32,000 nucleotides of DNA from Nonlabens ponticola (GCF_003966335.1 NZ_CP034549.1:1410001-1442000), one strand, 5' to 3'. Numbered from the stretch's first letter, positions 1 through 31,440 are shown. Translations and numbers: made by a program. Notes: generated from the sequence alone by a model not told the origin.

Positions 1-170
1 TACATTCTCGACACTTATGTAATTCATGCAATAGCTTTTAGGGACAGATTATCGACCTGTGCAAAATTACGTTCAATTACTCGCTCTTGATCATGAGCAA
101 GAAGCAAACTTGCAGTAATATTCATGAGTGTGGATAAGATGCTTTTATGGTTGCTGTTTTGGGTGATTAT

Positions 171-184
171 GCTTTCGCGAAAGC
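171..184. repeat. Iterated palindrome copy 1, exact GCTTTCGCGAAAGC
   Basis: gattat[core]ggtaca. It lies in the leader region upstream of wza, within the doubtful ORF 24..206. Confidence 0.98.
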
Positions 185-290
185 GGTACAAAACGACATA
201 CAACACTGCACCCTAAAATAAACCGAACGATAAAGAGTTATATAACGTGGGATCGTGTGGATTTTAATAGGCTTTTTCTTAACTAAATTT

Positions 291-298
291 TATATTTA
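291..298 (+). promoter_or_regulatory. Candidate -7-like box TATATTTA upstream of wza
   Basis: It matches TAnnTTTG at 7 of 8 positions and ends 22 nt before ATG 321. The same 11-mer TATATTTACCG recurs at 27281. Confidence 0.25.
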
Positions 299-320
299 CC
301 GCTTACACCTCAAGGAAACT

Positions 321-1118: not shown

Positions 1119-1123
1119 AGCAG

Positions 1124-3598
1124 ATGGAAGAAGATAAAGAGGTAAACGCGCTTTCAGGCATATTTGATATCAAGCAATTTTTCCGCAAATTGCTCAAGTT
1201 GTGGTGGTTGCTGTTATTATGTCTCGCGATAGGCTTTTCCTATGCGTATTATAAGAATCAATTTATACAAACCTATTATGACGCTAGTTCTTTGATTTCT
1301 ATCAAAGACAATACAAACCCGCTATTCACTTCAAACCAAAGCCTTACTTTTAATTGGGGTGGCACTACTGACAAGGTGACTACCATTATTACTCAATTCA
1401 AGTCTCGTTCTCATGCAGAGCAGGTTGTTGATGATCTGCAATATTATGTGGAGTACATCAAGGAAGGCGATTATTATAATGTAGATGCCTATAAACAAAC
1501 GCCATTTTTTGTTTATGTAGATACCAGTCAGGCTCAATTGTATGGTAAGGAGCTGCGCATCACGGTGCTGGATCAGGATACCTTTGAGCTTTCCACTACA
1601 TTTACAGATGCCACAGCACCTGGATATGATTATGGTGGTAAAGAAAAGGTGACGCTCAAGGTTCCTGTAGGTGAGTGGAGCGAGCAGTTCAAATTTGGCG
1701 ATCCAGTGGCTCTAGACTTTTTGCACATTGACGTACAGCGTCGTGAGGAAACCATACCTGTAGGTGGTGAGTGGCTCATCAAATTTTCGGACTATTGGGC
1801 AACGGTTAATACTTACAAGGCTATAAGTGTAAGACCAACAGATGATGGTAGTTCTATTTTAAAATTGACCCTATCTGGTAGAAACAAGCAACGTCTTATA
1901 GATTATATCAATAGGAGTAGTGAAGTATTAGTACGTCAAGAATTAGAGCGAAAGAATAAATTTGCCGTGAGTACTATTATTTATATTGATAGTAGTCTAG
2001 CTTCAGAGGCTGATAGGCTTAAAAAATCAGAAAATGCTCTGGAAAATTTTAGAGGTAATAGTCAGCTAATCGATGCTAGTACTCAAAGCACCGATTTCAA
2101 CAATAAGTTGACTGATTATGAAATCCAGAAAAGAGATCTTAATAATAGGCTTAACTATCTTAACAATCTAGAGAGCTATCTGCGCAGCAAGACAGACTAT
2201 ACTAATATTCAAGCACCTAGTACGGTAGGTATATCCAGCGGTAGCATTTCACAATATGTAGGCCAGTTGGTACAATTATCTGCAGAGCGTAAGCGCAGGG
2301 AATTTAGCATGCGAGAGGACGCACCTATTTTTCAGGATCTTGATAGACGTATTGATGCAGTCAAGGATGTACTTTATGAGAATATCGAGAGTAATAAGGA
2401 TTTACTGCAAGATGAATTACAGAGTCTGAGTCGTGAGATCAACAGACTGGAATCACAGATACGTAGATTGCCTAAAGAGCAGCAGGAATTATTGAAAATT
2501 CAAAGACAAGTTGATATTACCCAACAAAGTTTTGATCTATTTAAGGCAAAACGTGCTGAAGCAGAATTAGTCAAAGCAGCAAACGTGTCTGATATTTATA
2601 TCATCGATGAAGCTAAGGATACTGGTAGTGGTGGAACTTCACGTGATGGTACCATAAATTATCTTATAGCTTTACTGATAGGTGTGACCATACCCATTAC
2701 CGTAGCTTTCGTTTTTACCATGTTGGATAATTTTATCCACTCACCTAAGGATCTAGAAAAGATCTCGCCAGTGCCATTAATAGGTGTTATAGGACGGATA
2801 GACCATCCTAATAATCTCGTGGCTTATGAAAAACCTAGATCTGCCGTGGCAGAGGCTTTCCGCGGGCTACGATCCAGCTTGCATTTTATGTACTCCACGC
2901 CTGCAATTCAAGGTACACGCACTATCATGGTCACGAGTAGCGTGAGTGGTGAAGGGAAGACATTTACTAGTATTAATCTGGCGACCATCTTTGCCATAAG
3001 TGGTAAGCGCACCGTGCTGGTAGGTCTCGATTTGCGCAAGCCTAAAATCTTTGATGATTTTAATGTTAAGAACAAGGTAGGTGTTTCTAATTTTCTAGTA
3101 AATGATGCCAGTATTGACGAGATTACCATGTCCACAGAAATTGAGAATCTTGACGTGATTTTGTCTGGACCTACACCGCCCAATCCCAGTGAGTTGATCA
3201 TGTCAGACAATATGGTGACCATGATTGAAAAGTTGAAGGAGCGTTATGATTATGTAATTCTTGACACGCCACCGGTAGGCCTGGTGGCAGACGCCATGGA
3301 AATTGCCCATTATGCAGATGCCACGCTTTATGTCGTGCGTCAAGGCTATACGCGCAAGGGTATGCTGGATATCGTCAATGAAAAGTATGTACGTAAAGAA
3401 TTTAAGAATGTGAGCTTGTTATTCAATTTCTTTAAGGATCAAGCCAGCTACGGTTATGGTTACGGTTACGGCTATGGATACGGTTATGGAGCTTACGGTA
3501 ATGGCTATCATGAGCAATATAAGAGTAAAAATAAGGCAGTACGTTTATTGCATAGATTAAGAAAGATTGTACCGCTTTCGCGAAAGCGTAATTCCTAA
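1124..3598 (+). CDS. wzc: Wzc-like chain-length determinant / bacterial tyrosine (BY) autokinase
   Basis: 824 aa with two TM segments flanking a long coiled-coil region. The C-terminal P-loop kinase has Walker A SSVSGEGKTF, Walker A' LVGLDLRKP and Walker B YVILDTPPVG, followed by a Tyr-rich tail. Confidence 0.9.
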   Translation: MEEDKEVNALSGIFDIKQFFRKLLKLWWLLLLCLAIGFSYAYYKNQFIQTYYDASSLISIKDNTNPLFTSNQSLTFNWGGTTDKVTTIITQFKSRSHAEQVVDDLQYYVEYIKEGDYYNVDAYKQTPFFVYVDTSQAQLYGKELRITVLDQDTFELSTTFTDATAPGYDYGGKEKVTLKVPVGEWSEQFKFGDPVALDFLHIDVQRREETIPVGGEWLIKFSDYWATVNTYKAISVRPTDDGSSILKLTLSGRNKQRLIDYINRSSEVLVRQELERKNKFAVSTIIYIDSSLASEADRLKKSENALENFRGNSQLIDASTQSTDFNNKLTDYEIQKRDLNNRLNYLNNLESYLRSKTDYTNIQAPSTVGISSGSISQYVGQLVQLSAERKRREFSMREDAPIFQDLDRRIDAVKDVLYENIESNKDLLQDELQSLSREINRLESQIRRLPKEQQELLKIQRQVDITQQSFDLFKAKRAEAELVKAANVSDIYIIDEAKDTGSGGTSRDGTINYLIALLIGVTIPITVAFVFTMLDNFIHSPKDLEKISPVPLIGVIGRIDHPNNLVAYEKPRSAVAEAFRGLRSSLHFMYSTPAIQGTRTIMVTSSVSGEGKTFTSINLATIFAISGKRTVLVGLDLRKPKIFDDFNVKNKVGVSNFLVNDASIDEITMSTEIENLDVILSGPTPPNPSELIMSDNMVTMIEKLKERYDYVILDTPPVGLVADAMEIAHYADATLYVVRQGYTRKGMLDIVNEKYVRKEFKNVSLLFNFFKDQASYGYGYGYGYGYGYGAYGNGYHEQYKSKNKAVRLLHRLRKIVPLSRKRNS
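3449..3508 (+). repeat. Imperfect hexanucleotide (TAY GGN) tandem repeat encoding the (YG)7-AYGNGY tail of Wzc
   Basis: Read directly: tac ggt tat ggt tac ggt tac ggc tat gga tac ggt tat gga gct tac ggt aat ggc tat. It is in frame with the ORF starting at 1124. Confidence 0.9.
3574..3587. repeat. Iterated palindrome copy 2, exact
   Basis: ttgtacc[core]gtaatt. It lies in the last 10 codons of wzc and is read as PLSRKR. Confidence 0.98.
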
Positions 3599-3603
3599 CA
3601 GCT

Positions 3604-4470: not shown

Positions 4471-4472
4471 GG

Positions 4473-5747: not shown

Positions 5748-5774
5748 GCTTACAACTAATAATTTCTTTACAAT

Positions 5775-6572
5775 TTGGATTTGGATAAGGAATACGAACT
5801 GCTTAGCAATAATACTGTTACTCACAACGGTAAAGAATACAGCTGCAGGACATTTAGTTTAGGTGATGTGATTTATAAAAAGGGAACCAATCCTATTTGC
5901 TTTAATGAAAATAGGTTTTTAAAAAAACTATCAAATTGTAAAAATTTCCCCAATGTTATAAATTTTGAGCAAGGCATTGAAGAATCTAGCATTACAATAA
6001 ACTTTGTCAAAGGGCAGCCTCTAGAAGATGAAATCAAGGGCAGCCATTATTTATCACATGCTCAAATTTGCCAAATTTTAGGCGGTTGCCTAGATATATT
6101 AATGCAGCTCGCACGGTATCAAATTATCCATAGAGATATCAGACCAGACAATATTATAATATCAAAAAATAAAGAACAATACATTCCTGTTCTCATCGAT
6201 TTTGGTTGGGGTAAATATGTACAAGAGCAAGATGTAATAACACCATCTTATCTGGGTGATATGCAGCGATTTCCTGGTACGCTTTTTAATGATAGCTATT
6301 CAATGGGATATTGTTTGATACCACTTAAAAGAACTGAGGCGTTGACTGAGCTCGTAAATAAATTCATGATGGTTGATCCAATTACGGATAAAAATTTTAA
6401 TCATGTCACACTGGTATTGAATGATCTAAAACAGGATCTTAAACATTATGAATCTAAAAAGATACAGGAGCAGTTCTATCTATGGTTTGAGTTTTTGAAA
6501 AAGCGCATTTCAGAGTCAAGAATAGGAGCAGCTTACAGGAAATCAATCACGAAAGAAGTCATTCATGATTAA
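5775..6572 (+). CDS. Small eukaryotic-like (Hanks-fold) kinase, possible glycan/sugar kinase
   Basis: TTG start. Catalytic loop HRDIRPDN at nt 6129-6152, DFG motif (IDFGWG) at nt 6198-6206, and a VIYKK beta3-lysine candidate. There is no clear Gly-rich loop, and at 265 aa it consists of a kinase domain only. Confidence 0.7.
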   Translation: MDLDKEYELLSNNTVTHNGKEYSCRTFSLGDVIYKKGTNPICFNENRFLKKLSNCKNFPNVINFEQGIEESSITINFVKGQPLEDEIKGSHYLSHAQICQILGGCLDILMQLARYQIIHRDIRPDNIIISKNKEQYIPVLIDFGWGKYVQEQDVITPSYLGDMQRFPGTLFNDSYSMGYCLIPLKRTEALTELVNKFMMVDPITDKNFNHVTLVLNDLKQDLKHYESKKIQEQFYLWFEFLKKRISESRIGAAYRKSITKEVIHD

Positions 6573-7500
6573 AGAAGATACTAGTGAGAAAATGGAGCAT
6601 GCGCTTGCGATCGTAATACCCTACTACAAAAAAGATTTTTTCAATGAATGTTTAAATTCTTTAAAAAATCAAACAAATAAAGATTTTAATCTGTACGTTG
6701 GAGATGATGCATCACCAGATGATCCTATTGAAGTCCTAAAACAATTTAAAGACGATCTAGATGTTAAGTATGTGCGTTTTGATAATAATCTAGGATCGAT
6801 TTCTTTGACTTCACAATGGATGCGTTGTCTAACCATGACATTAGATGAGCCATGGATAATGATATTGTGTGATGATGATTTACTATCACCAACTGTGGTA
6901 GATCAGTTTTATTTCCATAGACAACAAATAGAGAAGCATAATATTCAGGTAGTAAAATATGCTACTCAAGTAATAGATGGTAAAGGAGAACCCATCAGTA
7001 AAGTATATAAGCATCCTAGAATACAGCCTTATTCGAGAGTATTTGAAGAGCGTTTTTTTAAGGATGGACGCAGTTCTTTATCAGAGCATATGTTTACTCG
7101 TGGAGCTTATGAAAAACACGGTTTTAGAGACGTACCACTAGCTTGGCATGCAGATGATTATGCCTGGATGGACTTTTCTGAGTTTGGAGATATCTATAGT
7201 ATTAACGATGCGCTGGTGTTTTTCAGAATGTCAGATCAAAATATTTCTAGGGCTGATTATGAGCAAATCACAAAATGGACTGAGACATTTAAGTATTTCA
7301 ACTTTGTTCTAAAGCATAAGCGAGATTTTCTTCAAAAGGATCAGATCATTAAAGTAATCGATTATCTGGAATGGATGACTTATCAGTATGACATGAATAA
7401 GAAGGATCTAATTAACGCTATATTTTGGCAAACCTTGAGATATAAGGGTGGGATCAATCTTGCTAAATTTGTGCGCAGACTATATATAAACCGCTCATGA
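6565..7500 (+). CDS. GT-A fold (GT2-like) glycosyltransferase, paralog of 9385..10323
   Basis: LAIVIPYYKKDFFNECLNSLKNQTNKDFNLYVGDDASPDD plus a DDD motif (ILCDDDLL). It overlaps the upstream stop by 8 nt; an alternative ATG lies at 6592. Confidence 0.75.
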   Translation: MIKEDTSEKMEHALAIVIPYYKKDFFNECLNSLKNQTNKDFNLYVGDDASPDDPIEVLKQFKDDLDVKYVRFDNNLGSISLTSQWMRCLTMTLDEPWIMILCDDDLLSPTVVDQFYFHRQQIEKHNIQVVKYATQVIDGKGEPISKVYKHPRIQPYSRVFEERFFKDGRSSLSEHMFTRGAYEKHGFRDVPLAWHADDYAWMDFSEFGDIYSINDALVFFRMSDQNISRADYEQITKWTETFKYFNFVLKHKRDFLQKDQIIKVIDYLEWMTYQYDMNKKDLINAIFWQTLRYKGGINLAKFVRRLYINRS

Positions 7501-8453
7501 ATAAAAATAAATTAGTCTCCATTCTAATACCTATCTACAATCGTGAACACCTTATTGAACAAACACTTCAATCAATTTCTATTCAAACGTATAAAAACTT
7601 TGAATGTATCATCGTGGATGACGGCTCTACTGACGATACTGTTGGTGTGATTTCTGCTTTCGCGAAAGCTGATCCAAGATTTAAAATTTTCATAAGATCA
7701 AAGGATCGAACTAAAGGAGCAAATTCATGTAGGAATATCGCTTTTGAGAAGTCACGAGGGGAAATTATAAAGTGGTTTGATAGTGATGACATAATGCTTG
7801 AAGATCATTTGCAGCTAGCTACTCATGCACTTGAAGACGAGCAAATAGATTTTGTAGTATCAGAAAGTGAAATTTTTGTTGATGATAAAAAAAAAGGTGC
7901 CGCTCCTTTTCATTCCTCTAAAGACGCCTCATTGATAAGCCCGGAAAACTATGCAAAGTTCGTCGTTGGTTGGATTACAAATGACTTTACTTGTAAAAGA
8001 AACACCATTCTTAATACGCGTTTTAATGAAAGATTTAGAACTGCTGGAGATGAGTATAACTTCTTCATTAAATACTTGCATAACACAACGGCAGGTGCCT
8101 TCATAGATAGAGTGACAACTCTTTATAGGCAACATGACATATCGTTAAGTAGCGATGTTGATGTTGATGAAGTAAAATACCACACTAATATTTGTGAGAT
8201 AAAATACTTGTGTAGTAACGACATGATTGCTCTGAGTAATTATGAATTAGCAAATTGGTTTATGGACGGTTACATAAATCATGCACATATTTTAATGAGC
8301 AAATCCACAAGTATTCCTTTTCTACGATCGGCCTTTAAGGATCTAGAAATAATCAAAACGAGTACACATGCCAATTATTTAAGATTGGCTCAACTTTCGT
8401 TTAGAGTTTTTGGAAAGGGTTACTATTTCATTAGAAAAGCCCGCGGCAACTAA
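7497..8453 (+). CDS. Family 2 glycosyltransferase
   Basis: Classical GT2 N-terminus VSILIPIYNREHLIEQTLQSISIQTYKNFECIIVDDGSTDDT and DSDD motif. It has a 4-nt ATGA overlap with the upstream gene. Confidence 0.9.
   Translation: MNKNKLVSILIPIYNREHLIEQTLQSISIQTYKNFECIIVDDGSTDDTVGVISAFAKADPRFKIFIRSKDRTKGANSCRNIAFEKSRGEIIKWFDSDDIMLEDHLQLATHALEDEQIDFVVSESEIFVDDKKKGAAPFHSSKDASLISPENYAKFVVGWITNDFTCKRNTILNTRFNERFRTAGDEYNFFIKYLHNTTAGAFIDRVTTLYRQHDISLSSDVDVDEVKYHTNICEIKYLCSNDMIALSNYELANWFMDGYINHAHILMSKSTSIPFLRSAFKDLEIIKTSTHANYLRLAQLSFRVFGKGYYFIRKARGN
7656..7669. repeat. Iterated palindrome copy 3, exact
   Basis: gatttct[core]tgatcc. It lies in the GT2 gene 7497..8453 and is read as AFAKA. Confidence 0.98.
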
Positions 8454-8497
8454 TAAATTATAACTTGCAGATTTATTTCGCGATTTTCGTTTAATTC

Positions 8498-9385
8498 ATG
8501 TCAGATCTAATTTCCATTATAATCCCTAGCTACAATCAATCTTCCTACATGGAGGAAACACTTTCTAGTGTTCAAAATCAAACGTTTAAAAATTGGGAAT
8601 GTTTGATAATTGATGATGGTAGTACTGACAATACGCGAGAAGTTGCAGCAAGATGGACAGAAAAGGATTCAAGATTCAAGTATTATTTTAAAAAAAATGG
8701 CGGTGTAAGTTCTGCAAGAAATGTAGGATTGAATAACGCTTTGGGAGACTTCATACAGTTTTTAGATTGCGATGATATCTTGAAAAAGACAAAATTAGAG
8801 GTATCTATAAATGCATTTAATTCTAATCACCTAGTCACTAATATCGTATTGACCGATTTTAAAATGCTCAATCAAGGTAACATAGTCGGTGTTCCATATT
8901 GCAATTTGAAAAAAGAGTATTTCAATTTTGAAAGCGTACTTTTTGGCTGGAATTATGATTTTTCTATTCCCATTCATTGTGGACTGTTCAGAAAAGAGGT
9001 ATTTGAAAAACTACGTTTCTCAGTTGAATTATCAGCTCAAGAAGATTGGCTTTTATGGGTCAAAATATTTAGAGATTACGGCGATGGTTATTTTTTAAAT
9101 GAAGCATTGGTTTTATATCGCAAGAATGTTGACGGTAGAACGCAATCAGGTAGCTATATTCCGGATCAAATGGCGGTCTTAAAACTTCTCAAGAAGGAAT
9201 TAAATCATCAGTTGTACGAGAAATTGCTATTTGTTCTGATTGAGCGTTACCTAAGAATCATAGAAGACAGAACTTCGGCATTGAATGGTATAAAGTCAAC
9301 ACGCTCATATCAATTGGGGCGCAAATTGAGAAGAGCTTTCACTAGAATTGGTATCATCAAATATTTTGAAAATCTTCTGCCCTGA
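8498..9385 (+). CDS. Family 2 glycosyltransferase
   Basis: ISIIIPSYNQSSYMEETLSSVQNQTFKNWECLIIDDGSTDNT and a DCDD motif. Confidence 0.9.
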   Translation: MSDLISIIIPSYNQSSYMEETLSSVQNQTFKNWECLIIDDGSTDNTREVAARWTEKDSRFKYYFKKNGGVSSARNVGLNNALGDFIQFLDCDDILKKTKLEVSINAFNSNHLVTNIVLTDFKMLNQGNIVGVPYCNLKKEYFNFESVLFGWNYDFSIPIHCGLFRKEVFEKLRFSVELSAQEDWLLWVKIFRDYGDGYFLNEALVLYRKNVDGRTQSGSYIPDQMAVLKLLKKELNHQLYEKLLFVLIERYLRIIEDRTSALNGIKSTRSYQLGRKLRRAFTRIGIIKYFENLLP

Positions 9386-10323
9386 TGAATGATACTATGC
9401 TATCCATTATTATTCCTTATTATAAGATTGATTTCTTTGAAGACACCTTGAAATCATTATCGTTACAGACGGATAAGCGATTTAATGTTTTCATAGGTAA
9501 TGACGGAAGTCCTGATGATCCATCAGCTTTGATTGAAAAATATCAAAACCACTTTGACCTTGAATACCATAAGTTTGATGAAAACCTGGGTAAATACTCT
9601 TTGATAAAACAATGGGAACGATGTATTGATCTAGTTCCTGATACTACTTGGATTCAAATAATTGGAGATGATGATATTTTGGAGCCTACATGTGTAGAAG
9701 CTTTTTATGAAAATCTAGATGAAATTAATCGTTCAGGTAGTCAGGTGGTTAGATATGCTACAAGAGTTATAGATGTTAGCAGTGATTTTTTAACTGACTC
9801 TTTTACTCATCCAAAAACTGAGACGTCGATTAATTTTTTTATTCGTAAGCTTAATGGTTTGACTCGTAGTTCTCTACCAGAATATGTTTTTAAATTTGAA
9901 TCTTTCAAGGCCGTTGGCCTACGCGATTTTCCGCTAGCTTGGCATAGTGATGATATTTTGGTTTTAGAGGTTTCAGATTTTGGCAACATCTATACTATTA
10001 ATGAGGCTAATGTGCTTTTCAGAAGTAGCGGTATCAACATAAGTTCAAAACAGGATAATAATGGGCCTAAGGCCTATGCTTCGTTTGCCTATTACAATCA
10101 TCTAATCTCCTTGTATTCTAATCGATTTGATAAGAATCAATTGAATTTATTATTGGACAATTGGGAAAGAGCCTTCTACAATATCAAAAGCGTTCCTAAA
10201 TTTTGGATACAGTTCTCCTCTTATTATTTATCACATGGTTTAGTTTTAAGATATACCAATTTTATTGGCAGATCTTTAAAGAGAACCATTCTCCACAAAT
10301 TGAAAAATCGCAGTAAAAAATAG
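9385..10323 (+). CDS. GT-A fold (GT2-like) glycosyltransferase, paralog of 6565..7500
   Basis: LSIIIPYYKIDFFEDTLKSLSLQTDKRFNVFIGNDGSPDD and IIGDDDIL. It is collinear with the 6565 protein along its whole length (e.g. PLAWHADDY vs PLAWHSDDI). It has a TGATG overlap with the upstream gene. Confidence 0.75.
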   Translation: MNDTMLSIIIPYYKIDFFEDTLKSLSLQTDKRFNVFIGNDGSPDDPSALIEKYQNHFDLEYHKFDENLGKYSLIKQWERCIDLVPDTTWIQIIGDDDILEPTCVEAFYENLDEINRSGSQVVRYATRVIDVSSDFLTDSFTHPKTETSINFFIRKLNGLTRSSLPEYVFKFESFKAVGLRDFPLAWHSDDILVLEVSDFGNIYTINEANVLFRSSGINISSKQDNNGPKAYASFAYYNHLISLYSNRFDKNQLNLLLDNWERAFYNIKSVPKFWIQFSSYYLSHGLVLRYTNFIGRSLKRTILHKLKNRSKK

Positions 10324-10327
10324 ATTT

Positions 10328-11545
10328 ATGGTCAAGAATGTTTTAGTGATTGCTCAGGATCTAAGGATTTCTGGAACCAGCGAGGGAATAGTATCACGAT
10401 CCTTCATAAAGAGATTAAAAATGATCTGGCCTTCGACTCGTGTAGATGTTTTATACACCAGACTTCATGGTGTGAGCGATGAGAAAATAGAATTATTAAA
10501 TGCAGATAATGTTCAAATAGAGAACGTCAATCGAGATATTCCATCTTATATAAAATGGCTCAATAAGTTTTATTGGAGGTCATTCCATGAATCATTGAAC
10601 GATGCACACATAGTGAACAAAATATCTAATATTTATAAGTCTTTAGACTTTTCAAAATATGATGTTATTTTCCTGCGCAGCTCTGGACAAGATTATGAGA
10701 ATATCCTTGCCGCAGTAGAATTTGATTTTTTAAAGAAGTCAATCGTCAATTTTCATGACCCGTATCCTGCATTCTGGGATCCTGGAAGTTCTAGCAATCT
10801 TGATATGTTAGAATTAAAGAAAGTAAAAAGAATGCATGAAGTAGTTGAAAAAGCAGGGATCAGTATATCACCTTCTCAATTGCTTTCCCAGGATATCTCT
10901 GTTTTATACAATCAATCCAAAAAACCACTGTCAACAATACCGCATCAATTTGAACCAACTGCCTTTGCCTTTAGTAAGTTGGATGCAGAATATAAGAAGA
11001 ATAAAAAGTACTCAATAACTTATCATGGAACTTTGCAGTTGGGTCGGGACATTGAAATTATCATAGATGCCTTTAAAGATCTATTGACGAATACTTTGAT
11101 TGAAAATAATTTTGAAATGATTTTACGGCTTAAAAGCGTTCACTATCATAAACTTGCGAGCAAATATTCTGGCATTGAGAACATACGGATATTGAAAGGT
11201 GCAAAATCGTCAATTTGTTTAAGTGAACAGATTTACAAGTCTGATGTAGCACTTCTTGTTGAAAATAATCTAGAGTACAGCAATATTTTACCAGGAAAGC
11301 TGCCAGTGCTCGCAAGTTCTAATGGAACGGTGTTCTCTGTCTGTCCAGATAAGAGTGAATCAAGACGTATAATTGAGGATGATAGGTTAGTAGCAAATAG
11401 CAAGAACAAAAAAGAAATTCAAGAGAAGCTTTCAGACCTACTATTGAGAATTATTAATAATGAAAAGGTAAAAAATCCTTATGCAGATTATTTTAGTCTT
11501 CAATCCTTTGAAAATATACTCAACAACTTAAGCTTAGTTTTTTGA
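10328..11545 (+). CDS. Divergent GT-B-fold glycosyltransferase-like protein (function unassigned)
   Basis: 405-aa ORF in operon context. The C-terminal half (ITYHGTLQLGRDIEII...LPGKLPVLASSNGTVF) resembles a GT1/GT4 C-domain, but I see no clear EX7E motif. Confidence 0.5.
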   Translation: MVKNVLVIAQDLRISGTSEGIVSRSFIKRLKMIWPSTRVDVLYTRLHGVSDEKIELLNADNVQIENVNRDIPSYIKWLNKFYWRSFHESLNDAHIVNKISNIYKSLDFSKYDVIFLRSSGQDYENILAAVEFDFLKKSIVNFHDPYPAFWDPGSSSNLDMLELKKVKRMHEVVEKAGISISPSQLLSQDISVLYNQSKKPLSTIPHQFEPTAFAFSKLDAEYKKNKKYSITYHGTLQLGRDIEIIIDAFKDLLTNTLIENNFEMILRLKSVHYHKLASKYSGIENIRILKGAKSSICLSEQIYKSDVALLVENNLEYSNILPGKLPVLASSNGTVFSVCPDKSESRRIIEDDRLVANSKNKKEIQEKLSDLLLRIINNEKVKNPYADYFSLQSFENILNNLSLVF

Positions 11546-12561: not shown

Positions 12562-12565
12562 GTAT

Positions 12566-13483: not shown

Positions 13484-13565
13484 TCCAGCCAGAGGCGGCT
13501 CAAAGCAATTGGCCAGAAAAATTGATGCTATGTTAAATGATCTTAATGCGCTGGAACATCTTATA

Positions 13566-13579
13566 GCTTACGCGAAAGC
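13566..13579. repeat. Iterated palindrome copy 4, one mismatch (GCTTACGCGAAAGC)
   Basis: cttata[core]taaaat. It lies in the 13484..13719 spacer, with T>A at 13570. Confidence 0.8.
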
Positions 13580-13719
13580 TAAAATCCAGCATAATGACAT
13601 TATGATAATAAATACGATTGATACTATTAATTTTACTGCATGTAATATTATGAAATGAGTAATGATATTAATATATATCTTGCCCTAGATATGGCATTGT
13701 ATTTTCTTCAAAAAGGCCC

Positions 13720-16167: not shown

Positions 16168-17261
16168 GTGATTTAGCTGGTCATATAGCCGTGGTGTGCA
16201 ATTATCAATTGCGTGAGGACAGGATAGGTGGCATGGATCGTTTTTTTGTGCGGTATGACGCTTTCGCGAAAGCTAACAATTACAAAGTCTCCTGGTATTT
16301 TTCCAACCATGAGGATCTAGAATTTTATCGTGAACTAGATATTGTTCCCAACTCTGGAAAATCTGCGGAACAGCATTTTATAGATCACTTGAATAGTTCA
16401 AAGTATTCCCACGTGGTGACGCATTTTACTTCCTTATGTAGCAATTTTCATAAAAAGATAAAGCAAGCACTACCAGATTCAAAATTGATGGTGGTGGATC
16501 ACAATCCACGACCGTTGCATGGTTTTACGGTTAAAAAGCGCCTGAAAAATAGACTGAAAGCTATATTGTTTGCAAAGTATGTCGATCAATGGATAGGTGT
16601 ATCAAATTATACGGTACATCATATCATCAAGGATCTTGGGAACCTTGTAAAGCCTAAAACAAGGTGTATTTACAACGGTATTGATGTTTCTGTGATTCCG
16701 TCTAGAGACATAATTGGCAACATCAATTTTACTGCGCATCGACCCTTGCGATTGATGATCGTCTCACACTTGCGTCATTCCAAAGGCATACAAGATGCCA
16801 TAGCCGCCTTAGGTCGATTATCAATACAAGAATTGAATAGTATAGAAGTGACTATCTACGGTGAAGGTCCTTTTGAAGCTCAACTAAGACAGCAAGTAGC
16901 AGATAATAATTTGGACCTAGTAATCACCTTCAAGGGCAGCTCACCGATCATACCCCAATTACTGCAAGATTATGATTATTTGTTACAACCTACTTACATG
17001 GAATGTTTTAGTTTGTCTATTCTAGAGTCATTAGCGGCAAACTTGCCAGTCATTACCACTACCGTAGGTGGTAATCTAGAAGTGATCCATCATGAGAAAA
17101 ATGGATTTATTTTTGAACCACAGGCTATTGATGATTTGGTTACTGTTTTACACGGTATTGTACATTCTCGACTCGCAATAGAAGAACCTACAAGGCCTTT
17201 GATCAAGCAGGAATTTTATCTTGACAAAATGGTGCAGGAACATTTTAATCTGATCGACTGA
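16164..17261 (+). CDS. Family 4 (GT-B) glycosyltransferase
   Basis: C-terminal EX7E region CFSLSILESLAANLPVITTTVGGNLEVIHHEKNGFIF. It has a 4-nt overlap with the upstream gene. Confidence 0.85.
   Translation: MSDLAGHIAVVCNYQLREDRIGGMDRFFVRYDAFAKANNYKVSWYFSNHEDLEFYRELDIVPNSGKSAEQHFIDHLNSSKYSHVVTHFTSLCSNFHKKIKQALPDSKLMVVDHNPRPLHGFTVKKRLKNRLKAILFAKYVDQWIGVSNYTVHHIIKDLGNLVKPKTRCIYNGIDVSVIPSRDIIGNINFTAHRPLRLMIVSHLRHSKGIQDAIAALGRLSIQELNSIEVTIYGEGPFEAQLRQQVADNNLDLVITFKGSSPIIPQLLQDYDYLLQPTYMECFSLSILESLAANLPVITTTVGGNLEVIHHEKNGFIFEPQAIDDLVTVLHGIVHSRLAIEEPTRPLIKQEFYLDKMVQEHFNLID
16260..16273. repeat. Iterated palindrome copy 5, exact
   Basis: gtatgac[core]taacaa. It lies in the GT4 gene 16164..17261 and is read as AFAKA. 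Confidence 0.98.
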
Positions 17262-19929: not shown

Positions 19930-20909
19930 AACTCGCACTCATCATATGCACCTACCAGCGGCCTGATGCCATCATGCGCTTGATGAAAACAGTGCAGAAT
20001 CAATCGGTAAAGCCTTATCAAATTCTAATTATTGATGGATCGCAGGATGATTTCACGGGATTACGCTTTCGCGAAAGCAAAATAGAAAACCTACATTATC
20101 ACAAAGTGCCAGAGGAACATCGCGGACTCACCAGACAGCGCAATTATGGCGTGCAAAGAGTTGATAAGGAAATTAATGTAGTTGCATTTCTAGATGATGA
20201 TGTCTTGCTGGAAGCCGACTATTTTGAGCAAATTCTTAATACGTACCATGAGCATCCTGATGCTCTCGCGGTCGGCGGCTATATTACCAATGAGGTTGAA
20301 TGGAATAAATCTACAGACGCTAACAGCGGCTTTTGTATGGATGGTTATTGCCGTAGCCTAGGCAGCAGGCATAAACTGCGCAACAAGCTAGGACTTGCTC
20401 CAGATGTTCCACCAGGACACATGCCTGCATTTGGTCATGGCTATTCCGTAAGCTTTTTACCACCATCGGGCAAAACATATCCAGTCCAGCAATTAATGGG
20501 TGGCGTGGCAAGTTACCGGGCAAGTGTCTTCAAGAATCATATATTCTCATCTTACTTTGAAGGTTACGGTCTTTATGAGGATGCAGATTTTAGTTTACGA
20601 TTGGCCAGAACAGGTAAGCTATACATCAATACTGCTGCGAGACTAGAGCATCACCATGACCCTAGTGGCAGGCCTAATTATTACAAGTATGGCAAGATGG
20701 TGGTGCGCAATGGCTGGTATGTATGGCACGTTGTGAATCCGCAACCTACACTCAAGGCAATTTTAAAGTGGTATGCCATCACAAAATTGCTCATTGCCAT
20801 CCGTTTGAGTAATGTGATTACTGGACCAGATAGAAGTGCCGCTCTCAAAGAAAGTATTGGCCGTATCGCAGGATTATGCAGTTTACTATTTAATGCACCA
20901 CGCCCATGA
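19926..20909 (+). CDS. Family 2 glycosyltransferase
   Basis: TTG start with a 4-nt overlap. LALIICTYQRPDAIMRLMKTVQNQSVKPYQILIIDGSQDD and AFLDDDVLL. Confidence 0.85.
   Translation: MKLALIICTYQRPDAIMRLMKTVQNQSVKPYQILIIDGSQDDFTGLRFRESKIENLHYHKVPEEHRGLTRQRNYGVQRVDKEINVVAFLDDDVLLEADYFEQILNTYHEHPDALAVGGYITNEVEWNKSTDANSGFCMDGYCRSLGSRHKLRNKLGLAPDVPPGHMPAFGHGYSVSFLPPSGKTYPVQQLMGGVASYRASVFKNHIFSSYFEGYGLYEDADFSLRLARTGKLYINTAARLEHHHDPSGRPNYYKYGKMVVRNGWYVWHVVNPQPTLKAILKWYAITKLLIAIRLSNVITGPDRSAALKESIGRIAGLCSLLFNAPRP
20065..20078. repeat. Iterated palindrome copy 6, exact
   Basis: ggattac[core]aaaata. It lies in the GT2 gene 19926..20909 and is read as RFRES. Confidence 0.98.
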
Positions 20910-22895: not shown

Positions 22896-23720
22896 TTACA
22901 CATGGACGTGAAAAGTCTGCTGTCGCTGTTCCTTGCGCAAAAATATCAAGCCCCATTGAAACGTATCTATACACGCGGTCACTTTTGGATGGTTCTGCAA
23001 GGTTTTCCATGCTGTCGTCATACCAGTCGACCAATAAATATCATCGACAATCACGATGCTATCATCGTGCAGGTGCGGCAATAATCTCTCAAAATAATCA
23101 AGGGTAGCCGCACCATCATGGTGACCATCGATAAATACAAGATCATATTGGCTTTTCTGGTCAAGCTTATCGAGGAATACATCAAAAGTAGAACTGATCG
23201 ACGTGATGTTAGAGATTTTAAAATCATCCCAACGTTGTCGCGCATAATCCAGCACTGCTGGGCTCGCCTCAACTGTGGTTATATCAGAAGTTAGCGATAG
23301 GGCATGAGCAGTTACTCCTAACGAGGTGCCTAATTCAAGAGCGTTCTCGACATTGAGATAATCTGCAATACGAGCTAATAATTGAGTCCTGTAGTGGCTG
23401 CTGCAATTGACTTTGAGGATTTGTGAAGTGTTCCGCAGTGATTTGTTAAGCTTTTTACTACCTGCACCGTGGTCAGTGATTTGCAGCGTTGCTGGATGGC
23501 TTGTTATGCTTTCGCGAAAGCGTAATAGTTCATCTTTCACTGCAAGAGACGATCCTTGTTGCAAGCAATCCTTGTTGAAGGCATAGATAAATGGCGAGTG
23601 GATGCCATGAAGATGTATCGATTTAAACCGATGCGCTAGGTAGTATTTGATCTGATGCCACACGTGGCAAAAATAGGTGATGTGCACGCCAGAGCAAGAA
23701 ATCGGGCCATCAAAGAGCAT
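22896..23720 (-). CDS. Class I SAM-dependent (O-)methyltransferase
   Basis: Motif I ALELGTSLGVTAHAL and DLVFIDGHHDGAATLDYF are typical of the Methyltransf_24/OMT-3 type. The start is uncertain: ATG 23720, or GTG 23663 giving (M)WHQIKYYL. Confidence 0.75.
   Translation of the reverse strand: MLFDGPISCSGVHITYFCHVWHQIKYYLAHRFKSIHLHGIHSPFIYAFNKDCLQQGSSLAVKDELLRFRESITSHPATLQITDHGAGSKKLNKSLRNTSQILKVNCSSHYRTQLLARIADYLNVENALELGTSLGVTAHALSLTSDITTVEASPAVLDYARQRWDDFKISNITSISSTFDVFLDKLDQKSQYDLVFIDGHHDGAATLDYFERLLPHLHDDSIVIVDDIYWSTGMTTAWKTLQNHPKVTACIDTFQWGLIFLRKEQRQQTFHVHV
23508..23521. repeat. Iterated palindrome copy 7, exact
   Basis: ttgttat[core]gtaata. It lies in the minus-strand methyltransferase gene and is read as RFRES. 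Confidence 0.98.
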
Positions 23721-26231: not shown

Positions 26232-26265
26232 GACAGATTCATCGTCACGTTCAATTCTACAGCCC

Positions 26266-27273
26266 ATGAATATTATTTACATAGGCAATAAGTTGCAGAA
26301 TAAAAATCGCACGGCAACAACGATCGATACGTTGGGTTCACGATTAGAAGCATTAGGTTTTAACATGAAGTATGCCTCTAGTAAATCCAACAAAATCTTA
26401 CGGCTGCTAGACATGATTAACACCGTTATTACTTATTCAAGATGGGCTGATAAGGTTTTAATTGATACGTATAGCACTCAAAACTTTTGGTATGCGATAA
26501 GTTTGGCTCGCATCTGTAGATTGTTGGGTATTCCTTACATTCCTATATTACATGGAGGCAATTTGCCAGCACGATTGCAATCGCAGCCTAAGATTTTCAA
26601 GAGGTTTTTAAACGCAGCACAGCATATAGTTTGTCCTAGTGCTTATCTAGAGCAAGCTTTCGCGAAAGCTAACTTCTCAAATATCAATGTCATACCTAAC
26701 AGCATTCAAGGTGAGCACTATACTTTTAACAAGCGAGAGTCTATAACTCCAAAATTATTGTGGGTGCGTTCACTAGCAGCGATCTACAATCCACAGATGG
26801 CAATACATGCCCTGAAATCCATTGCCGAAACATATCCCAACGCGAGCCTCACAATGGTAGGTCCAGATAAAGAGAACATGTTGCCAGAGTTGAGAAGACT
26901 GGCTAATGAGCACCATCTAGACATCACATTTACTGGTTTATTATCAATAGCTGAATGGATTGCATTGAGTGATGAACACGATATTTTTATCAACACCTCA
27001 CATTTTGATAATCTGCCTGTGAGTCTACTTGAAGCTATGGCATTAGGGTTACCTGTAATATCTACTGAGGTTGGTGGTATTCCCAACTTGATTGATCATG
27101 GTAAAAACGGCATACTTATAGCAGACGATGATGCTCAACAAATGGCTGATCAGATCAAATTGTTGATACAAGATCCTGCTAAAGCCGCTGCCCTATCAAT
27201 GAATGGCCGCTTGAAGGCCGAAAGCTATTTCTGGGAACAGGTTAAACAACAATGGTTCACCATATTGACATAA
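26266..27273 (+). CDS. Family 4 (GT-B) glycosyltransferase
   Basis: FDNLPVSLLEAMALGLPVISTEVGGIPNLIDHGKNGILI (EX7E). Confidence 0.85.
   Translation: MNIIYIGNKLQNKNRTATTIDTLGSRLEALGFNMKYASSKSNKILRLLDMINTVITYSRWADKVLIDTYSTQNFWYAISLARICRLLGIPYIPILHGGNLPARLQSQPKIFKRFLNAAQHIVCPSAYLEQAFAKANFSNINVIPNSIQGEHYTFNKRESITPKLLWVRSLAAIYNPQMAIHALKSIAETYPNASLTMVGPDKENMLPELRRLANEHHLDITFTGLLSIAEWIALSDEHDIFINTSHFDNLPVSLLEAMALGLPVISTEVGGIPNLIDHGKNGILIADDDAQQMADQIKLLIQDPAKAAALSMNGRLKAESYFWEQVKQQWFTILT
26656..26669. repeat. Iterated palindrome copy 8, exact
   Basis: gagcaa[core]taactt. It lies in the GT4 gene 26266..27273 and is read as AFAKA. Confidence 0.98.
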
Positions 27274-27280
27274 GAAACGA

Positions 27281-27288
27281 TATATTTA
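27281..27288 (+). promoter_or_regulatory. Candidate -7-like box TATATTTA upstream of the initiating sugar transferase
   Basis: It has the same 11-mer TATATTTACCG as at 291..301 and ends 21 nt before ATG 27310. Confidence 0.25.
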
Positions 27289-27309
27289 CCGTTGACAGAT
27301 TCCCCAAGT

Positions 27310-28701: not shown

Positions 28702-28705
28702 ATAT

Positions 28706-30352
28706 TTATTTACGCTTCATCTTACCACGCTTAAATATTGCAAACAGTAAAGTGAATAGACCTAGTACGCTGGCAAGTCTAGCAATGTAATCGCCATGCG
28801 TATTGTAAAAAGTTATTTTGTCATACAGGTCGATAGTTCCTTTGATGGATCCTCGTTTTTCATAACCTAGCGATTGTTGAATAGTTCCCATAGGATCTAT
28901 AATCGCACTAATACCAGTGTTGGCACTGCGTGCTATACTTCTTCTGGTTTCAACAGCTCGCAATCGCGCCAGGCTTAAATGCTGTTGATGACCTTGAGTG
29001 TTGTCCCACCACGCATCATTAGTAATAATAGCAAGAAATTGCGCGCCATTGTTGACATAATCTCCCACATAATCACCATAAACCGATTCATAGCATATGA
29101 TTGGTGCAACGGCGATGCTATCATTAGATTTGAAAACGCTGCGTTCTTCTTGAGTAGTTTTGGTAGCTACTGTGCCACCTAGATCAATCATTGCATCGCC
29201 CAGAATAGGTTGCAAGATTCCTTTATACGGGAAATTCTCGACGCCTACCACAAGCTTTGATTTGTGATATAGTTCTGTCGCTCGATTTCCAGATAAGAAA
29301 AAGGCACTATTATAATCATCATAATAAAACCTGCCAGCGGCATAGTAATTAGTCTGTCGCTTGACGCGATTTTCTTCTCTAAATCGATCGATTAAAGAAA
29401 CACCACCTAAAAATGAGGCGTCATCATATTGAGCTGTTAGATTTTTCAATTGATTCAAGCTGCGGTCATAAGGGACTCGTGATAGCTCGATGGATCTGGA
29501 AAGAACGGTTTCAGGCGCGATTATAAAATCAGGATTGTAGCTGGCTGGATCTGGTAGTAAATCCGATAATCTTGAGACAAACTCTGTATTCTCTAGATCG
29601 TATTTCTCGTCATAGGGATCAACATTGGGCTGCAAGATCACGACATCAACCTGTCCAATTGATTTTAGTTCTTGTTGTGCAATTAATAATGAGACTAGTA
29701 GCGGGCTTGCAATCAAGAATAGAGGTAATGCGATAGCTTTTAACATTCTAGAGAGGCTTGCTGGGTTTTTGCTTTGGCGAAAGCGTAATACCGACAAAAA
29801 CACCACCACGTTTACCAGCCATATCCACAAGCTACCACCAAAGGTGCCCGTGTATTCATACCACTGAATCCATGAAGTATGCTCACTGAAACCATTACCC
29901 AAGTTAAGCCATGGCCAGGAAAATTCCCAATGCAGGTGCATCCATTCAAAAGCGATCCATAAACAAACCAGAAAGGTGAGTGATGCGCCAGTAGTGGAAC
30001 GGCGCGCAAATAAATGATAAACCCAAAACACCAATGCCATGAGTAACGAGTTGACCAGCACTGCAAAGAACATCCCAAAGGCCGTTGAATTATATAACCA
30101 GCCTGTTGTCGCGTAATTCCACAACACAAAGGTGAGATAGGCGAGTCCCAAAACTTTCCAGCCTCGCGCTTTTTTTGACTCAACTCTTATAGATCGCTCT
30201 ACCAGCAGCAACGGCACAAAGGCTACAAATAATAAAGCAGGAAAACCATAGGTAGGCCACCCCAACCAGAGCAATAGTGCGCTGATCAACGATAAACCTA
30301 AAAGTTGTGCGGTGGACAAAAGGATTGATTTTTTAAGACTGCAAAATAACAA
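28706..30352 (-). CDS. lnt: Apolipoprotein N-acyltransferase
   Basis: 548 aa with an N-terminal multi-TM region plus a C-terminal CN-hydrolase domain (PETV..., KSKLVVGVE, APIICYESVYGDY with catalytic Cys). TTG start. Confidence 0.85.
   Translation of the reverse strand: MLFCSLKKSILLSTAQLLGLSLISALLLWLGWPTYGFPALLFVAFVPLLLVERSIRVESKKARGWKVLGLAYLTFVLWNYATTGWLYNSTAFGMFFAVLVNSLLMALVFWVYHLFARRSTTGASLTFLVCLWIAFEWMHLHWEFSWPWLNLGNGFSEHTSWIQWYEYTGTFGGSLWIWLVNVVVFLSVLRFRQSKNPASLSRMLKAIALPLFLIASPLLVSLLIAQQELKSIGQVDVVILQPNVDPYDEKYDLENTEFVSRLSDLLPDPASYNPDFIIAPETVLSRSIELSRVPYDRSLNQLKNLTAQYDDASFLGGVSLIDRFREENRVKRQTNYYAAGRFYYDDYNSAFFLSGNRATELYHKSKLVVGVENFPYKGILQPILGDAMIDLGGTVATKTTQEERSVFKSNDSIAVAPIICYESVYGDYVGDYVNNGAQFLAIITNDAWWDNTQGHQQHLSLARLRAVETRRSIARSANTGISAIIDPMGTIQQSLGYEKRGSIKGTIDLYDKITFYNTHGDYIARLASVLGLFTLLFAIFKRGKMKRK
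29771..29784. repeat. Iterated palindrome copy 9, one mismatch (GCTTTGGCGAAAGC)
   Basis: gttttt[core]gtaata. It lies in minus-strand lnt and is read as RFRQS, with C>G at 29776. Confidence 0.8.
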
Positions 30353-30372
30353 TCAATAGTGTCATATCGCGA

Positions 30373-31440
30373 TTATCTAAAGACAGATAAATCAATATTG
30401 AGCGAGAAAACGTTGCTGTACAGCGCGGCACTTTGATCGCCTATATCAGTTAATGCATAATCTACTGATATGCCCTTGTACTTAAATCCTATCCCGATAT
30501 TAGGCTGGAAAGTCACGTCATCATTGCCATCGAGTTGCTGTACATTCTGGAAATTACCGACTCCGGCACGCACAAATACCAAATCTGTATAACCGTATTG
30601 CAATCCTAGGGCTGGCGTGGCGCTTATGGAACCGCTGGAGAATATGTCGTTAGTCTGTATAAATCGCATGTTTAAATCGACCTCGGCGAGAAGCACATGA
30701 TCATAGTGAAATACAAACTCGCGAGCAATGCCTAGTTGTAGTTTTGGTAAGGTGATTTCAGTCGTTTCTGGAAGTTCTTGATTTTGGTTTTCTACGGCAT
30801 CGCTTACCGTCGCAAACTCGTCCTCATCGATGGACCACGTATTATAGGTGGTTGTAATATCTCTTACCATCGCGCCAAATTTCCATTTACCACGCTCCAA
30901 TTGAACACCTAGATCAATACCAAAGCCAATTGAACTCGCAAAATCACCTATCACGCGACGTATGATCTTGACGTTACCACCATATGAAAAACCGTCCAGT
31001 TTTGATTCACGAGCATAGGATGCAGTGACAGCCCAATCTGCGGTAGAAAAGGTAGAAATACGATCATAATTAATGTTTCCTTGATCGTCGATAAGTTGTG
31101 TCGTATTCAAAATATCATCGACTGAAAATCTTATTACGGAAAATCCTATGGCACTTTGATCATCAATAGGCATAGCGTATGCACCGTAGTTGTATTGTGC
31201 GATGTTGGCAAAATAGCTTGAGTGCATCAGCGAGATTTCCTTTTCTTCCAGCTGCATGAGTCCTGCTGGATTCCAGTAACCTGCGTTGACATTGCTGGTG
31301 CTGGCAACCACGGCGTTGCTCATTCCCAATGCTGCTGCATCGACACCTATGTTCAAAAATTCATTGGAATAGGCTCTTGAGGTTTGCGCTTTCGCGAAAG
31401 CGGAACAAACTAAAATTAAAATAACACTATAGTATCTCAA
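30373..31440 (-). CDS. Outer-membrane beta-barrel protein, PorV/PorQ-like (T9SS-associated family)
   Basis: Signal peptide MRYYSVILILVCSAFAKA|Q. N-terminal block NEFLNIGVDAAALGMSNAVVAS...AGYWNPAGL, alternating beta-strand pattern, C-terminal aromatic residue. TTG start, 20 nt upstream of lnt. Confidence 0.55.
   Translation of the reverse strand: MRYYSVILILVCSAFAKAQTSRAYSNEFLNIGVDAAALGMSNAVVASTSNVNAGYWNPAGLMQLEEKEISLMHSSYFANIAQYNYGAYAMPIDDQSAIGFSVIRFSVDDILNTTQLIDDQGNINYDRISTFSTADWAVTASYARESKLDGFSYGGNVKIIRRVIGDFASSIGFGIDLGVQLERGKWKFGAMVRDITTTYNTWSIDEDEFATVSDAVENQNQELPETTEITLPKLQLGIAREFVFHYDHVLLAEVDLNMRFIQTNDIFSSGSISATPALGLQYGYTDLVFVRAGVGNFQNVQQLDGNDDVTFQPNIGIGFKYKGISVDYALTDIGDQSAALYSNVFSLNIDLSVFR
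31388..31401. repeat. Iterated palindrome copy 10, exact
   Basis: gtttgc[core]ggaaca. It lies in the signal peptide of the minus-strand PorV/PorQ-like gene and is read as AFAKA. Confidence 0.98.

Follow-up and report, generated by a model that had tools for sequence, protein, structure and literature searches.

An iterated palindrome with strand-polar flanks in Nonlabens, Dokdonia and allied Flavobacteriaceae

A polysaccharide locus carrying ten copies of a palindrome

The stretch of Nonlabens ponticola DNA considered here (GCF_003966335.1 NZ_CP034549.1:1410001-1442000; 32 kb in all, hereafter the window) is a polysaccharide-biosynthesis locus that encodes Wza- and Wzc-like proteins, an ABC-2/Wzt transporter and many GT2 and GT4 glycosyltransferases, alongside Wzy_C, sugar transferase, Lnt and PorV-like products. 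The Lnt encoded here matches the N. ponticola protein at 100% identity. Dispersed through it is a 14-bp palindrome, GCTTTCGCGAAAGC (the core), which is present in eight exact copies (starting at 171, 3574, 7656, 16260, 20065, 23508, 26656 and 31388) and in two copies with one mismatch (GCTTACGCGAAAGC at 13566 and GCTTTGGCGAAAGC at 29771). Dinucleotide-preserving shuffles of the window give an expectation of 0.09, none of 100 shuffles reached ten copies, and the over-representation exceeds 100-fold. The palindrome is not peculiar to this locus: Nonlabens, Dokdonia and allied uncultured Flavobacteriaceae share a clade-specific palindrome, iterated throughout their genomes, that has GCTTTCGCGAAAGC as its core. 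The copies in the window, each given with 4 bp on either side of the core, are as follows.

Copy 1, 167..188: exact core 171-184, flanks TTAT/GGTA; non-coding, with no long open reading frame (ORF) over it, 5' of the Poly_export (Wza-like) gene 255-1118.
Copy 2, 3570..3591: exact core 3574-3587, flanks TACC/GTAA; within the final codons of the Wzc-like tyrosine-kinase gene 1124-3598, frame 2 (..PLSRKRNS*).
Copy 3, 7652..7673: exact core 7656-7669; in the GT2 glycosyltransferase gene 7497-8453, frame 0 (..VIS-AFAKA-DPRF..).
Copy 4, 13562..13583: one-mismatch core GCTTACGCGAAAGC, 13566-13579; in the spacer between the GT2 gene 12545-13483 and the ORF 13720-14514.
Copy 5, 16256..16277: exact core 16260-16273; in the GT4 gene 16164-17261, frame 0 (..RYD-AFAKA-NNYK..).
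Copy 6, 20061..20082: exact core 20065-20078; in the GT2 gene 19926-20909, frame 1 (..GL-RFRES-KIE..).
Copy 7, 23504..23525: exact core 23508-23521, flanks TTAT/GTAA; within the methyltransferase gene 22896-23720 (minus strand), frame 1 (..LL-RFRES-ITS..).
Copy 8, 26652..26673: exact core 26656-26669; in the GT4 gene 26266-27273, frame 0 (..LEQ-AFAKA-NFS..).
Copy 9, 29767..29788: one-mismatch core GCTTTGGCGAAAGC, 29771-29784; in lnt, 28706-30352 (minus strand).
Copy 10, 31384..31405: exact core 31388-31401, flanks TTGC/GGAA; within the PorV-like gene 30373-31440 (minus strand), frame 0 (..LILVCS-AFAKA-QTSR..).
Polar composition signature, 141..31431: about 30 bp on either side of each copy, mirror-symmetric.

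Clade-wide occurrence of the palindrome

The exact 14-mer was sought in one genome per species across 185,579 species. The resulting tiles come mostly from Dokdonia, Nonlabens and uncultured Flavobacteriaceae and often hold 2-3 copies per 8 kb, and the unrelated GC-rich genomes in the scan contribute single chance matches. Two tiles labelled as uncultured Aquimarina (L071 and L110) carry copies of the clade type. Loci chosen without regard to the motif, through homologues of Lnt, gave 8 exact copies in 21.6 kb of N. marinus, 4 exact and 3 one-mismatch copies in YIK11, 4 exact and 2 one-mismatch in N. arenilitoris, and 5 exact and 1 one-mismatch in a Nonlabens-like contig from JGI. No copy was found in the syntenic Lnt loci of Mesonia phycicola and Aquimarina algiphila, nor in the Lnt loci of six more distant Flavobacteriaceae (89 kb); a metagenome scan with Lnt returned distant relatives only (38-50% identity), which serve as motif-free controls. 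The density is about 1 per 3-4 kb at every Nonlabens locus studied, which implies some 700-1000 sites per genome. No searchable paper contains the 14-mer and the literature on palindromes in Dokdonia held nothing relevant; the palindrome appears to be previously undescribed.

Two groups of matches from outside the clade are of a different nature. In a Bryobacterales metagenome-assembled genome (MAG), a 414-bp segment with the 14-mer lies twice on one contig, about 110 kb apart and 100% identical (L005:6122-6535 and L022:3705-4118); this is an unrelated repeat that holds the 14-mer by chance. A family of high-G+C viral contigs (GC about 0.65; L127, L136, L139, L143 and about 15 more loci) shares one conserved gene segment with a single 14-mer, which is present there by descent and not through enrichment of the motif.

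Viruses of the clade itself fall on both sides. The lytic cultured Nonlabens phages P12024S and P12024L (L251 and L252; 71 kb together) have no copy within two mismatches, a zero that equals the chance expectation, and the density of the host would give about 20 more; both phages encode DNA methyltransferases as well as ERF/YqaJ-type recombination proteins of their own. On some IMG/VR contigs 2-3 copies are present, with flanks of the clade type, as on L215 (191, 6705 and 11185) and L179 (4210, 7851 and 10955), where the spacing of 3-6 kb and the flanks are those of the host. A motif-bearing viral contig has a real phage head module (portal, protease, major head and adaptor), one derives from an isolate genome, and cultured relatives of L215 no closer than 35% identity were found; the motif-bearing viral contigs are probably prophages of the clade. 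As the lytic phages lack the motif and the prophage-like contigs have it, the motif marks chromosome-resident DNA and not all DNA that replicates in the cell.

Structure of the unit

The flanks were characterized in 144 exact copies from the window and 85 related tiles, which yield 288 half-flanks, each read toward the core. Position -1 is C in 81% of these (1.35 bits), -2 is A or C, -3 is T in 69% and -4 is T in 59%; in the window alone (20 half-flanks) C is found at -1 in 9 (P=0.009), T at -3 in 15 (P=1e-4) and T at -4 in 16 (P<1e-4). The 16-mer C-core-G makes up 68% of copies, and those in non-coding DNA have the consensus TTAC-core-GTAA (C 88%, A 59%, T 77% and T 55%, counted outward). The full unit is a symmetric palindrome of 16-22 bp, (TTA)C-core-G(TAA), whose flanks exist in dialects: TAC/GTA in Dokdonia (43%), and in Nonlabens TCC/GGA (26%), TAC (18%) and TTC (12%).

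These preferences bear on the original prediction, which was made from the copies in the window and proposed a conserved, partly asymmetric unit of 22-26 bp with an extra TTGT on one side. The strings that it quoted are all present, namely TTGTACC-core-ATAATC (reverse complement, rc, of copy 1), TTGTACC-core-GTAATT (copy 2), TTGTTAT-core-GTAATA (copy 7), TTGTTCC-core-GCAAAC (rc copy 10) and TTGTTA-core-GTCATA (rc copy 5), and GTAAT adjoins the core in copies 2, 7, 9 and rc 6. There is information outside the 14-bp core, as it claimed, in the shape of C-core-G and the TTAC/GTAA consensus. The unit is indeed larger than a 14-bp word, being effectively a palindrome of 16-22 bp. The asymmetry is an effect of aligning a handful of copies visually: TTGT, which is part of the GT-rich flank and has an enrichment of about 1.8-fold close to the core, lies on the left in 18, on the right in 25 and on both sides in 5 of 143 copies (Fisher P=0.31), and since it is found on either side there is no intrinsic asymmetry.

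Only the complete site is enriched. Outside full copies the half-site GCTTTCG occurs 24 times against 24.3 expected and TCGCGA, the embedded NruI site, 74 times against 78, and none of the inner 4-, 6- and 8-mers, CGCG included, is enriched there, so that a short restriction-type word does not suffice, as had been predicted. A restriction-modification target, expected to be avoided or at chance in its host, was rejected on the strength of the more than 100-fold excess and the chance level of TCGCGA outside the copies. The most constrained segment is the inner 10-mer TTTCGCGAAA. Exact copies outnumber those with one mismatch by 8:2 in the window and by 145 to 15 overall, a ratio of about 4:1 in the tiles once the ascertained copy per tile is discounted. 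The information per site amounts to about 28 + 2x4.55 = 37 bits, and about 12 bits suffice for 1 site per 3.5 kb. As a hairpin, the core is predicted to fold at -2.1 kcal/mol and the 22-mer at -7.3 kcal/mol, and the fold in context is not above shuffles (z -0.8 to -1.8). Complementarity between the two flanks of one copy beyond +/-4 is not above that of shuffled partners (z about -1), and an extended hairpin was dropped on account of this and of the unremarkable folding energies. No Rfam family matches the window.

Beyond +/-4 the flanks have a common composition but no common sequence. The strand that reads 5'->3' toward the core is C-poor and G/T-rich and, leading away from it, becomes G-poor and A/C-rich, a switch that has died away some 30 bp out on either side. 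From -20 to -10 the content of C is reduced from 19% to 9% and that of G raised to 26%; from +10 to +20 G is reduced to 9% and C raised to 25%. Among the 288 half-flanks, the departure from background has P<0.01 at every position from -4 to -19 save -8 and -14. The effect is visible within the window, where -24..-5 (20 half-flanks) has 10.7% C against a background of 19.6% (P=1e-6) and 27.8% G (P=5e-5). The entire signature is about 70 bp rather than 22-26 bp, because the mirror-symmetric GT-rich 5' and AC-rich 3' flanks extend for about 30 bp. The two sides are independent, with no correlation between the G/T richness of the left and the right flank (r=-0.01). The switch is alike in coding and non-coding copies whatever the direction of the gene; in coding copies third codon positions show it most (C 0.18->0.05 upstream, G 0.16->0.06 downstream), and first and second positions are affected as well, with a shift in amino-acid usage.

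Finer patterns were observed within the flanks. T peaks recur at every third base (-4, -7, -10 and -13), in non-coding copies too (period-3 P about 0.01). A tolerated C at -2, -8, -14 and -20 (a 6-nt pattern of C/G in the flanks) is marginal (P about 0.02-0.07). The G at +1 is weaker in frames 1 and 2 (small numbers), which is probably coding constraint.

Placement in genes and spacing

Copies lie both within and between genes. Called genes contain 95 of 145 copies (about 66-72% are in long ORFs), and with a coding density of 88% this is a 2.9-fold intergenic excess. Reading frames 0, 1 and 2 are all used, yielding AFAKA (56 copies), RFRES (24) and LSRK (24), respectively; the preference for frame 0 may arise because the T peaks then fall on wobble positions. 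In copy 10 the palindrome codes for the C-terminal end of a predicted signal peptide, with AFAKA as an AxA-type cleavage motif. The 45 intergenic copies (29 in tandem, 12 in divergent and 4 in convergent spacers) follow the relative lengths of these spacers. The first fifth of genes holds about twice its share of coding copies (27 of 80), perhaps since junctions of hydrophobic and polar segments suit flanks that are G/T-rich and then A/C-rich.

The placement disposes of several familiar classes. An intrinsic terminator was rejected, as the 3' flank is A/C-rich without a T-run and just 4 of the 45 intergenic copies are between convergent genes, and a wider association with terminators or promoters fell away because intergenic copies follow spacer type in proportion. 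Elements of the repetitive extragenic palindromic (REP) or bacterial interspersed mosaic element (BIME) type, associated with RAYT, are extragenic and form a stable imperfect hairpin of 20-40 nt; here 95 of 145 copies are in genes and no such hairpin is formed.

Spacing is more even than random. Gaps in the window have a coefficient of variation of 0.33 (P=9e-4), gaps below 1 kb number 1 in the tiles against 14 expected (P<2e-4) and those below 500 bp number 0 against 7.4, and the smallest gap in the motif-unbiased loci is 877 bp; copies repel each other below about 1 kb. The largest gap in the window, 7670-13565 (5.9 kb), coincides with its lowest G+C (0.34 against about 0.40) and with a run of GT2 genes, and may be a recent acquisition that has not yet gained the motif. 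Elsewhere in the window, an ORF at 5775-6572 with a protein-kinase (Pkinase/ABC1-like) domain was seen between the Wzt ABC-transporter ATPase and the glycosyltransferases.

Gain and conservation of sites

Comparison of orthologues indicates how copies come about. A Nonlabens MAG (L012) has CFAFAKAD where the window has YRKMRSAD, in proteins of equal length, with clustered substitutions and no indel, and copy 3 sits in a normal GT2 N-terminal domain without insertion. Equal lengths, clustered substitutions and the ordinary GT2 domain show that copies arise in place by base substitution, overriding the local amino-acid sequence. The original prediction had offered a copied or converted element, or a larger protein footprint, as the source of the conserved flanks: a larger footprint or conversion is still viable, and a copied element is unsupported, for the flanks share no homology and target-site duplications, sought at every element boundary, were none beyond chance.

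Once gained, sites stay nearly unchanged at orthologous positions in different species. Nine site groups were followed in six Nonlabens-type genomes (Lnt 60-70% identical), a site being scored as 'on' with 0-1 mismatch; 31 of 43 Nonlabens cells of this comparison are on, those that are off have 4-10 mismatches, and outgroups are always off. Footprint identity is 98% over the core, about 88% at +/-1 and at background (50-60%) beyond +/-4, where the G/T versus A/C composition is nonetheless kept between orthologues despite their differing sequence. Copy 10 is on in all six Nonlabens-type genomes and absent in Mesonia. The orthologous site of copy 8 is exact in N. marinus, N. arenilitoris and the JGI contig, lost in YIK11 and absent in Mesonia; that of copy 6 is exact in N. 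marinus, has one mismatch in the JGI contig and is absent in N. arenilitoris. Copy 9 is itself a decayed orthologue with exact counterparts in N. marinus, YIK11 and the JGI contig, and copy 7 recurs as a 20-bp island at the orthologous place in Nonlabens tegetincola (L009:606) amid about 55% nucleotide identity. A further copy was noted in the uncultured relative L015 (L015:2804, rc coordinate 5184), where it occupies a short spacer that separates the convergent sugar-transferase and lnt genes; it is a lineage-specific gain, as the sequence at this place is unrelated in N. ponticola and four other genomes.

What may maintain the palindrome

The best explanation, to which we would give slightly less than an even chance, is that this clade-specific iterated palindrome is the duplex site of a dimeric protein and acts as a self-DNA tag for uptake and/or recombination, a reading that draws on analogy with the uptake signal sequence (USS), the DNA uptake sequence (DUS) and the highly iterated palindrome HIP1. 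Since enrichment is confined to the full palindrome and does not extend to half-sites, and since the hairpin is weak, the reader would most likely be a dimeric, sequence-specific protein that recognizes duplex DNA. The site would most likely be kept abundant by drive or selection of some kind on DNA resident in the chromosome, as with USS/DUS and HIP1, and the tag would favour the uptake and/or recombinational processing of conspecific DNA. On each side the G/T-rich strand has its 3' end toward the palindrome, the same arrangement as in the 3' single-stranded tails that receive RecA at breaks and Chi-like sites; this polarity hints, speculatively, at a role in recombination. RecA has been shown to prefer TGG/GT-rich single-stranded DNA resembling Chi (PMC3763553), and competence exists in the Flavobacteriales, where Riemerella columbina prefers its own DNA in transformation (PMC7965970). 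A bolder form of the proposal, that this is the first sequence-specific self-DNA signal of the Bacteroidota, a palindrome read by a dimer, with G/T flanks as RecA-loading 3' tails and the roles of USS/DUS and Chi united in one site, we regard as less likely than not.

Several points weigh against the tag proposal. The uptake sequences and Chi sites known so far are shorter and lack such symmetry; dimeric DNA-binding proteins (ParB, Noc, SlmA or MatP, for example) are the more usual readers of a perfect palindrome of 14-22 bp. No experiment, literature or gene ties Nonlabens or Dokdonia to natural competence, although genes for competence, AddAB/RecBCD and a receptor were not searched for. The flanks of USS are AT-rich and not polar, and the polar flanks here could instead have been left by mutation (C->T and A->G on an exposed strand) or reflect a DNA-shape requirement that has nothing to do with recombination. 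Conservation of sites fits ordinary purifying selection for any chromosomal function equally well as drive. The tiles are 8-kb pieces that were picked because the motif is present, and statistics from them carry that selection; the motif-unbiased loci fetched with Lnt are few and orthologous to one another.

The main rival, rather unlikely in our view, retains the dimeric reader and changes its purpose: a clade-specific nucleoid-associated or chromosome-organizing protein, acting in the manner of Noc, SlmA, MatP or ParB at about a thousand sites, for which selection would hold one site every few kb and the flanks would represent DNA shape or a wide footprint. It accommodates the perfect 14-22 bp palindrome, the lack of enrichment of half-sites alone, the weak hairpin, the over-dispersed spacing, the strong conservation of sites and their absence from lytic phages, and the periodicity of HIP1 has been interpreted likewise (PMC5861425). 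It is strained by numbers, as known palindromic nucleoid sites are present in tens per genome and not about 800-1000, and by the roughly 37 bits per site where about 12 are needed, which is well beyond the usual evolution of binding sites. It would also be costly to force AFAKA, RFRES or LSRK and biased flanking codons on hundreds of proteins, and the G/T versus A/C polarity of the strands is no obvious feature of duplex shape.

An improbable alternative holds that the sites are functionless by-products of a methyltransferase or a mismatch nuclease, as proposed for HIP1, with biased repair completing near-matches. The great excess of exact over near-exact copies, gain by substitution and the on/off bimodality of orthologous sites would follow from it, and Elhai has proposed a methyltransferase-linked maintenance of highly iterated palindromes (PMC4390886); the flank shifts, moreover, agree with C->T plus A->G changes on one strand, and they peak at third codon positions. 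Yet a specificity of 14-22 bp is well past the known recognition of methyltransferases or Vsr-type enzymes, the inner 4-, 6- and 8-mers are unenriched outside full sites, and lytic phages whose replication is confined to this host show none. Under such a process sites would be steadily renewed at new places, whereas they are kept across species, and the repulsion in their spacing is unexpected from a local bias of repair.

An element acting in RNA is very unlikely. In this account a hairpin would serve as a terminator, attenuator, processing site or Rho-entry signal in both directions of transcription, and the ability of the 22-mer to fold (-7.3 kcal/mol), a 3' flank that is C-rich and G-poor like rut sites and the intergenic excess would speak for it; two thirds of the copies are nevertheless within translated ORFs, there is no T-run, the core hairpin (-2.1 kcal/mol) is unexceptional in context (z -0.8 to -1.8 against shuffles) and has no match in Rfam, convergent spacers are not enriched (4/45), and the pattern is independent of gene direction.

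A miniature mobile or selfish element that inserts a unit of 22-26 bp, akin to REP/RAYT, miniature inverted-repeat transposable elements (MITEs) or Rickettsia palindromic elements (RPEs), is largely refuted and barely credible: the numerous identical copies with short conserved flanks recall one, and the TA at -3/-2 and +2/+3 of the Dokdonia type could mimic a TA duplication, but orthologues without the motif are equally long, target-site duplications do not exceed chance, the flanks are non-homologous (at background identity), 66% of copies are intragenic and in all frames, copies stay at orthologous positions, and the Nonlabens-type flanks TCC/GGA are not direct repeats.

Comparison with known systems

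In its behaviour the palindrome matches the class of genome-wide iterated signals, among which USS/DUS and HIP1 appear, by analogy, to be the closest relatives in kind. Such motifs (USS, DUS, Chi and HIP1) are rare cases in which the specificity of a molecular machine is visible across a whole genome. To our knowledge, the well-understood cases are all from Proteobacteria, and we know of no uptake sequence in the Bacteroidota. HIP1 is still debated after 30 years.

The more distant systems share single traits with it. REP/BIME elements with RAYT, RPEs and MITEs are likewise short palindromic repeats in hundreds of copies, and RPEs can sit in-frame in genes; here there is no insertion, target-site duplication, clustering or homology beyond +/-4, and most copies are intragenic and stable at orthologous sites. 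The sites of ParB/Noc (16/14 bp), SlmA (12 bp) and MatP (13 bp) are also dispersed palindromes of 12-16 bp read by dimers that can be in genes, but these number about 10-100 and are regionally distributed, against about 1 per 3-4 kb here. Chi (e.g. GCTGGTGG in E. coli, read by RecBCD/AddAB) resembles the palindrome in frequency (about 1 per 4-5 kb), in its location mostly within genes, in the G/T-rich sequence on the strand with its 3' end at the site, and as a marker of self that is lacking in phages with their own recombinases, P12024S/L encoding ERF and YqaJ-like proteins. It differs in being 5-8 nt long, asymmetric, read in single strands, oriented to replication and enriched just a few-fold; a 14-bp palindrome without definable orientation, conserved to the base, is unlike any known Chi.

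HIP1 (GCGATCGC, cyanobacteria) is likewise a perfect, hyper-abundant palindrome, found within genes and outside them; its sites are conserved from genome to genome and non-randomly spaced, and some genomes have palindromic extensions of it (PMC4390886, PMC5861425). Conserved HIP1 sites improve transformation, and an uptake or Chi-like role has been proposed (PMC5861425; bioRxiv 10.1101/2024.09.10.611283; 10.64898/2026.06.24.733823). The two are unrelated in sequence and phylum, and the palindrome described here is longer (14-22 bp, not 8-10 bp) and less dense. HIP1 contains the methylation sites GATC/CGATCG; here the embedded short palindromes, CGCG and TCGCGA, show no enrichment apart from full copies, and nothing therefore points to a methyltransferase core of 4-6 bp. 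A polar flank signature is not described in the HIP1 literature cited here.

The likeness to USS (AAGTGCGGT plus flanks, Pasteurellaceae) and DUS (e.g. ATGCCGTCTGAA, Neisseriaceae) is the broadest. All number roughly a thousand per genome (one every 1-4 kb or so), are specific to a clade, differ in flank dialect between genera and have extended conserved flanks (PMC1939737, PMC2817400, PMC3630211). About two thirds of copies are in ORFs, in several frames, where they originate by substitution and shape the encoded peptides; there is an intergenic excess, spacing is more even than random, perfect copies outnumber those one step away and lytic phages have none. In H. influenzae, 65% of USS are in ORFs and they are evenly spaced (PMC1939737). 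The differences are that the palindrome is perfect and longer (14-22 bp), where the core of an uptake sequence is asymmetric, and that its flanks are strand-polar, G/T versus A/C, where those of USS are AT-rich.

The strand-polar signature has not been reported for USS/DUS, HIP1 or Chi in the literature cited. The phylogenetic profile (present in Nonlabens and Dokdonia, absent from Mesonia and Aquimarina algiphila) and a defined pull-down bait are handles on the reader protein, and the palindrome opens a direct test of self-DNA discrimination by marine flavobacteria. In practice it can mark recently acquired DNA and assign clade prophages to hosts, and it may improve genetic tools for these proteorhodopsin model organisms. 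Beside the proteobacterial signals and HIP1, it would be an independent case from the abundant marine Flavobacteriaceae, set apart by an unusually long exact core, dialects between genera and deep conservation of sites.

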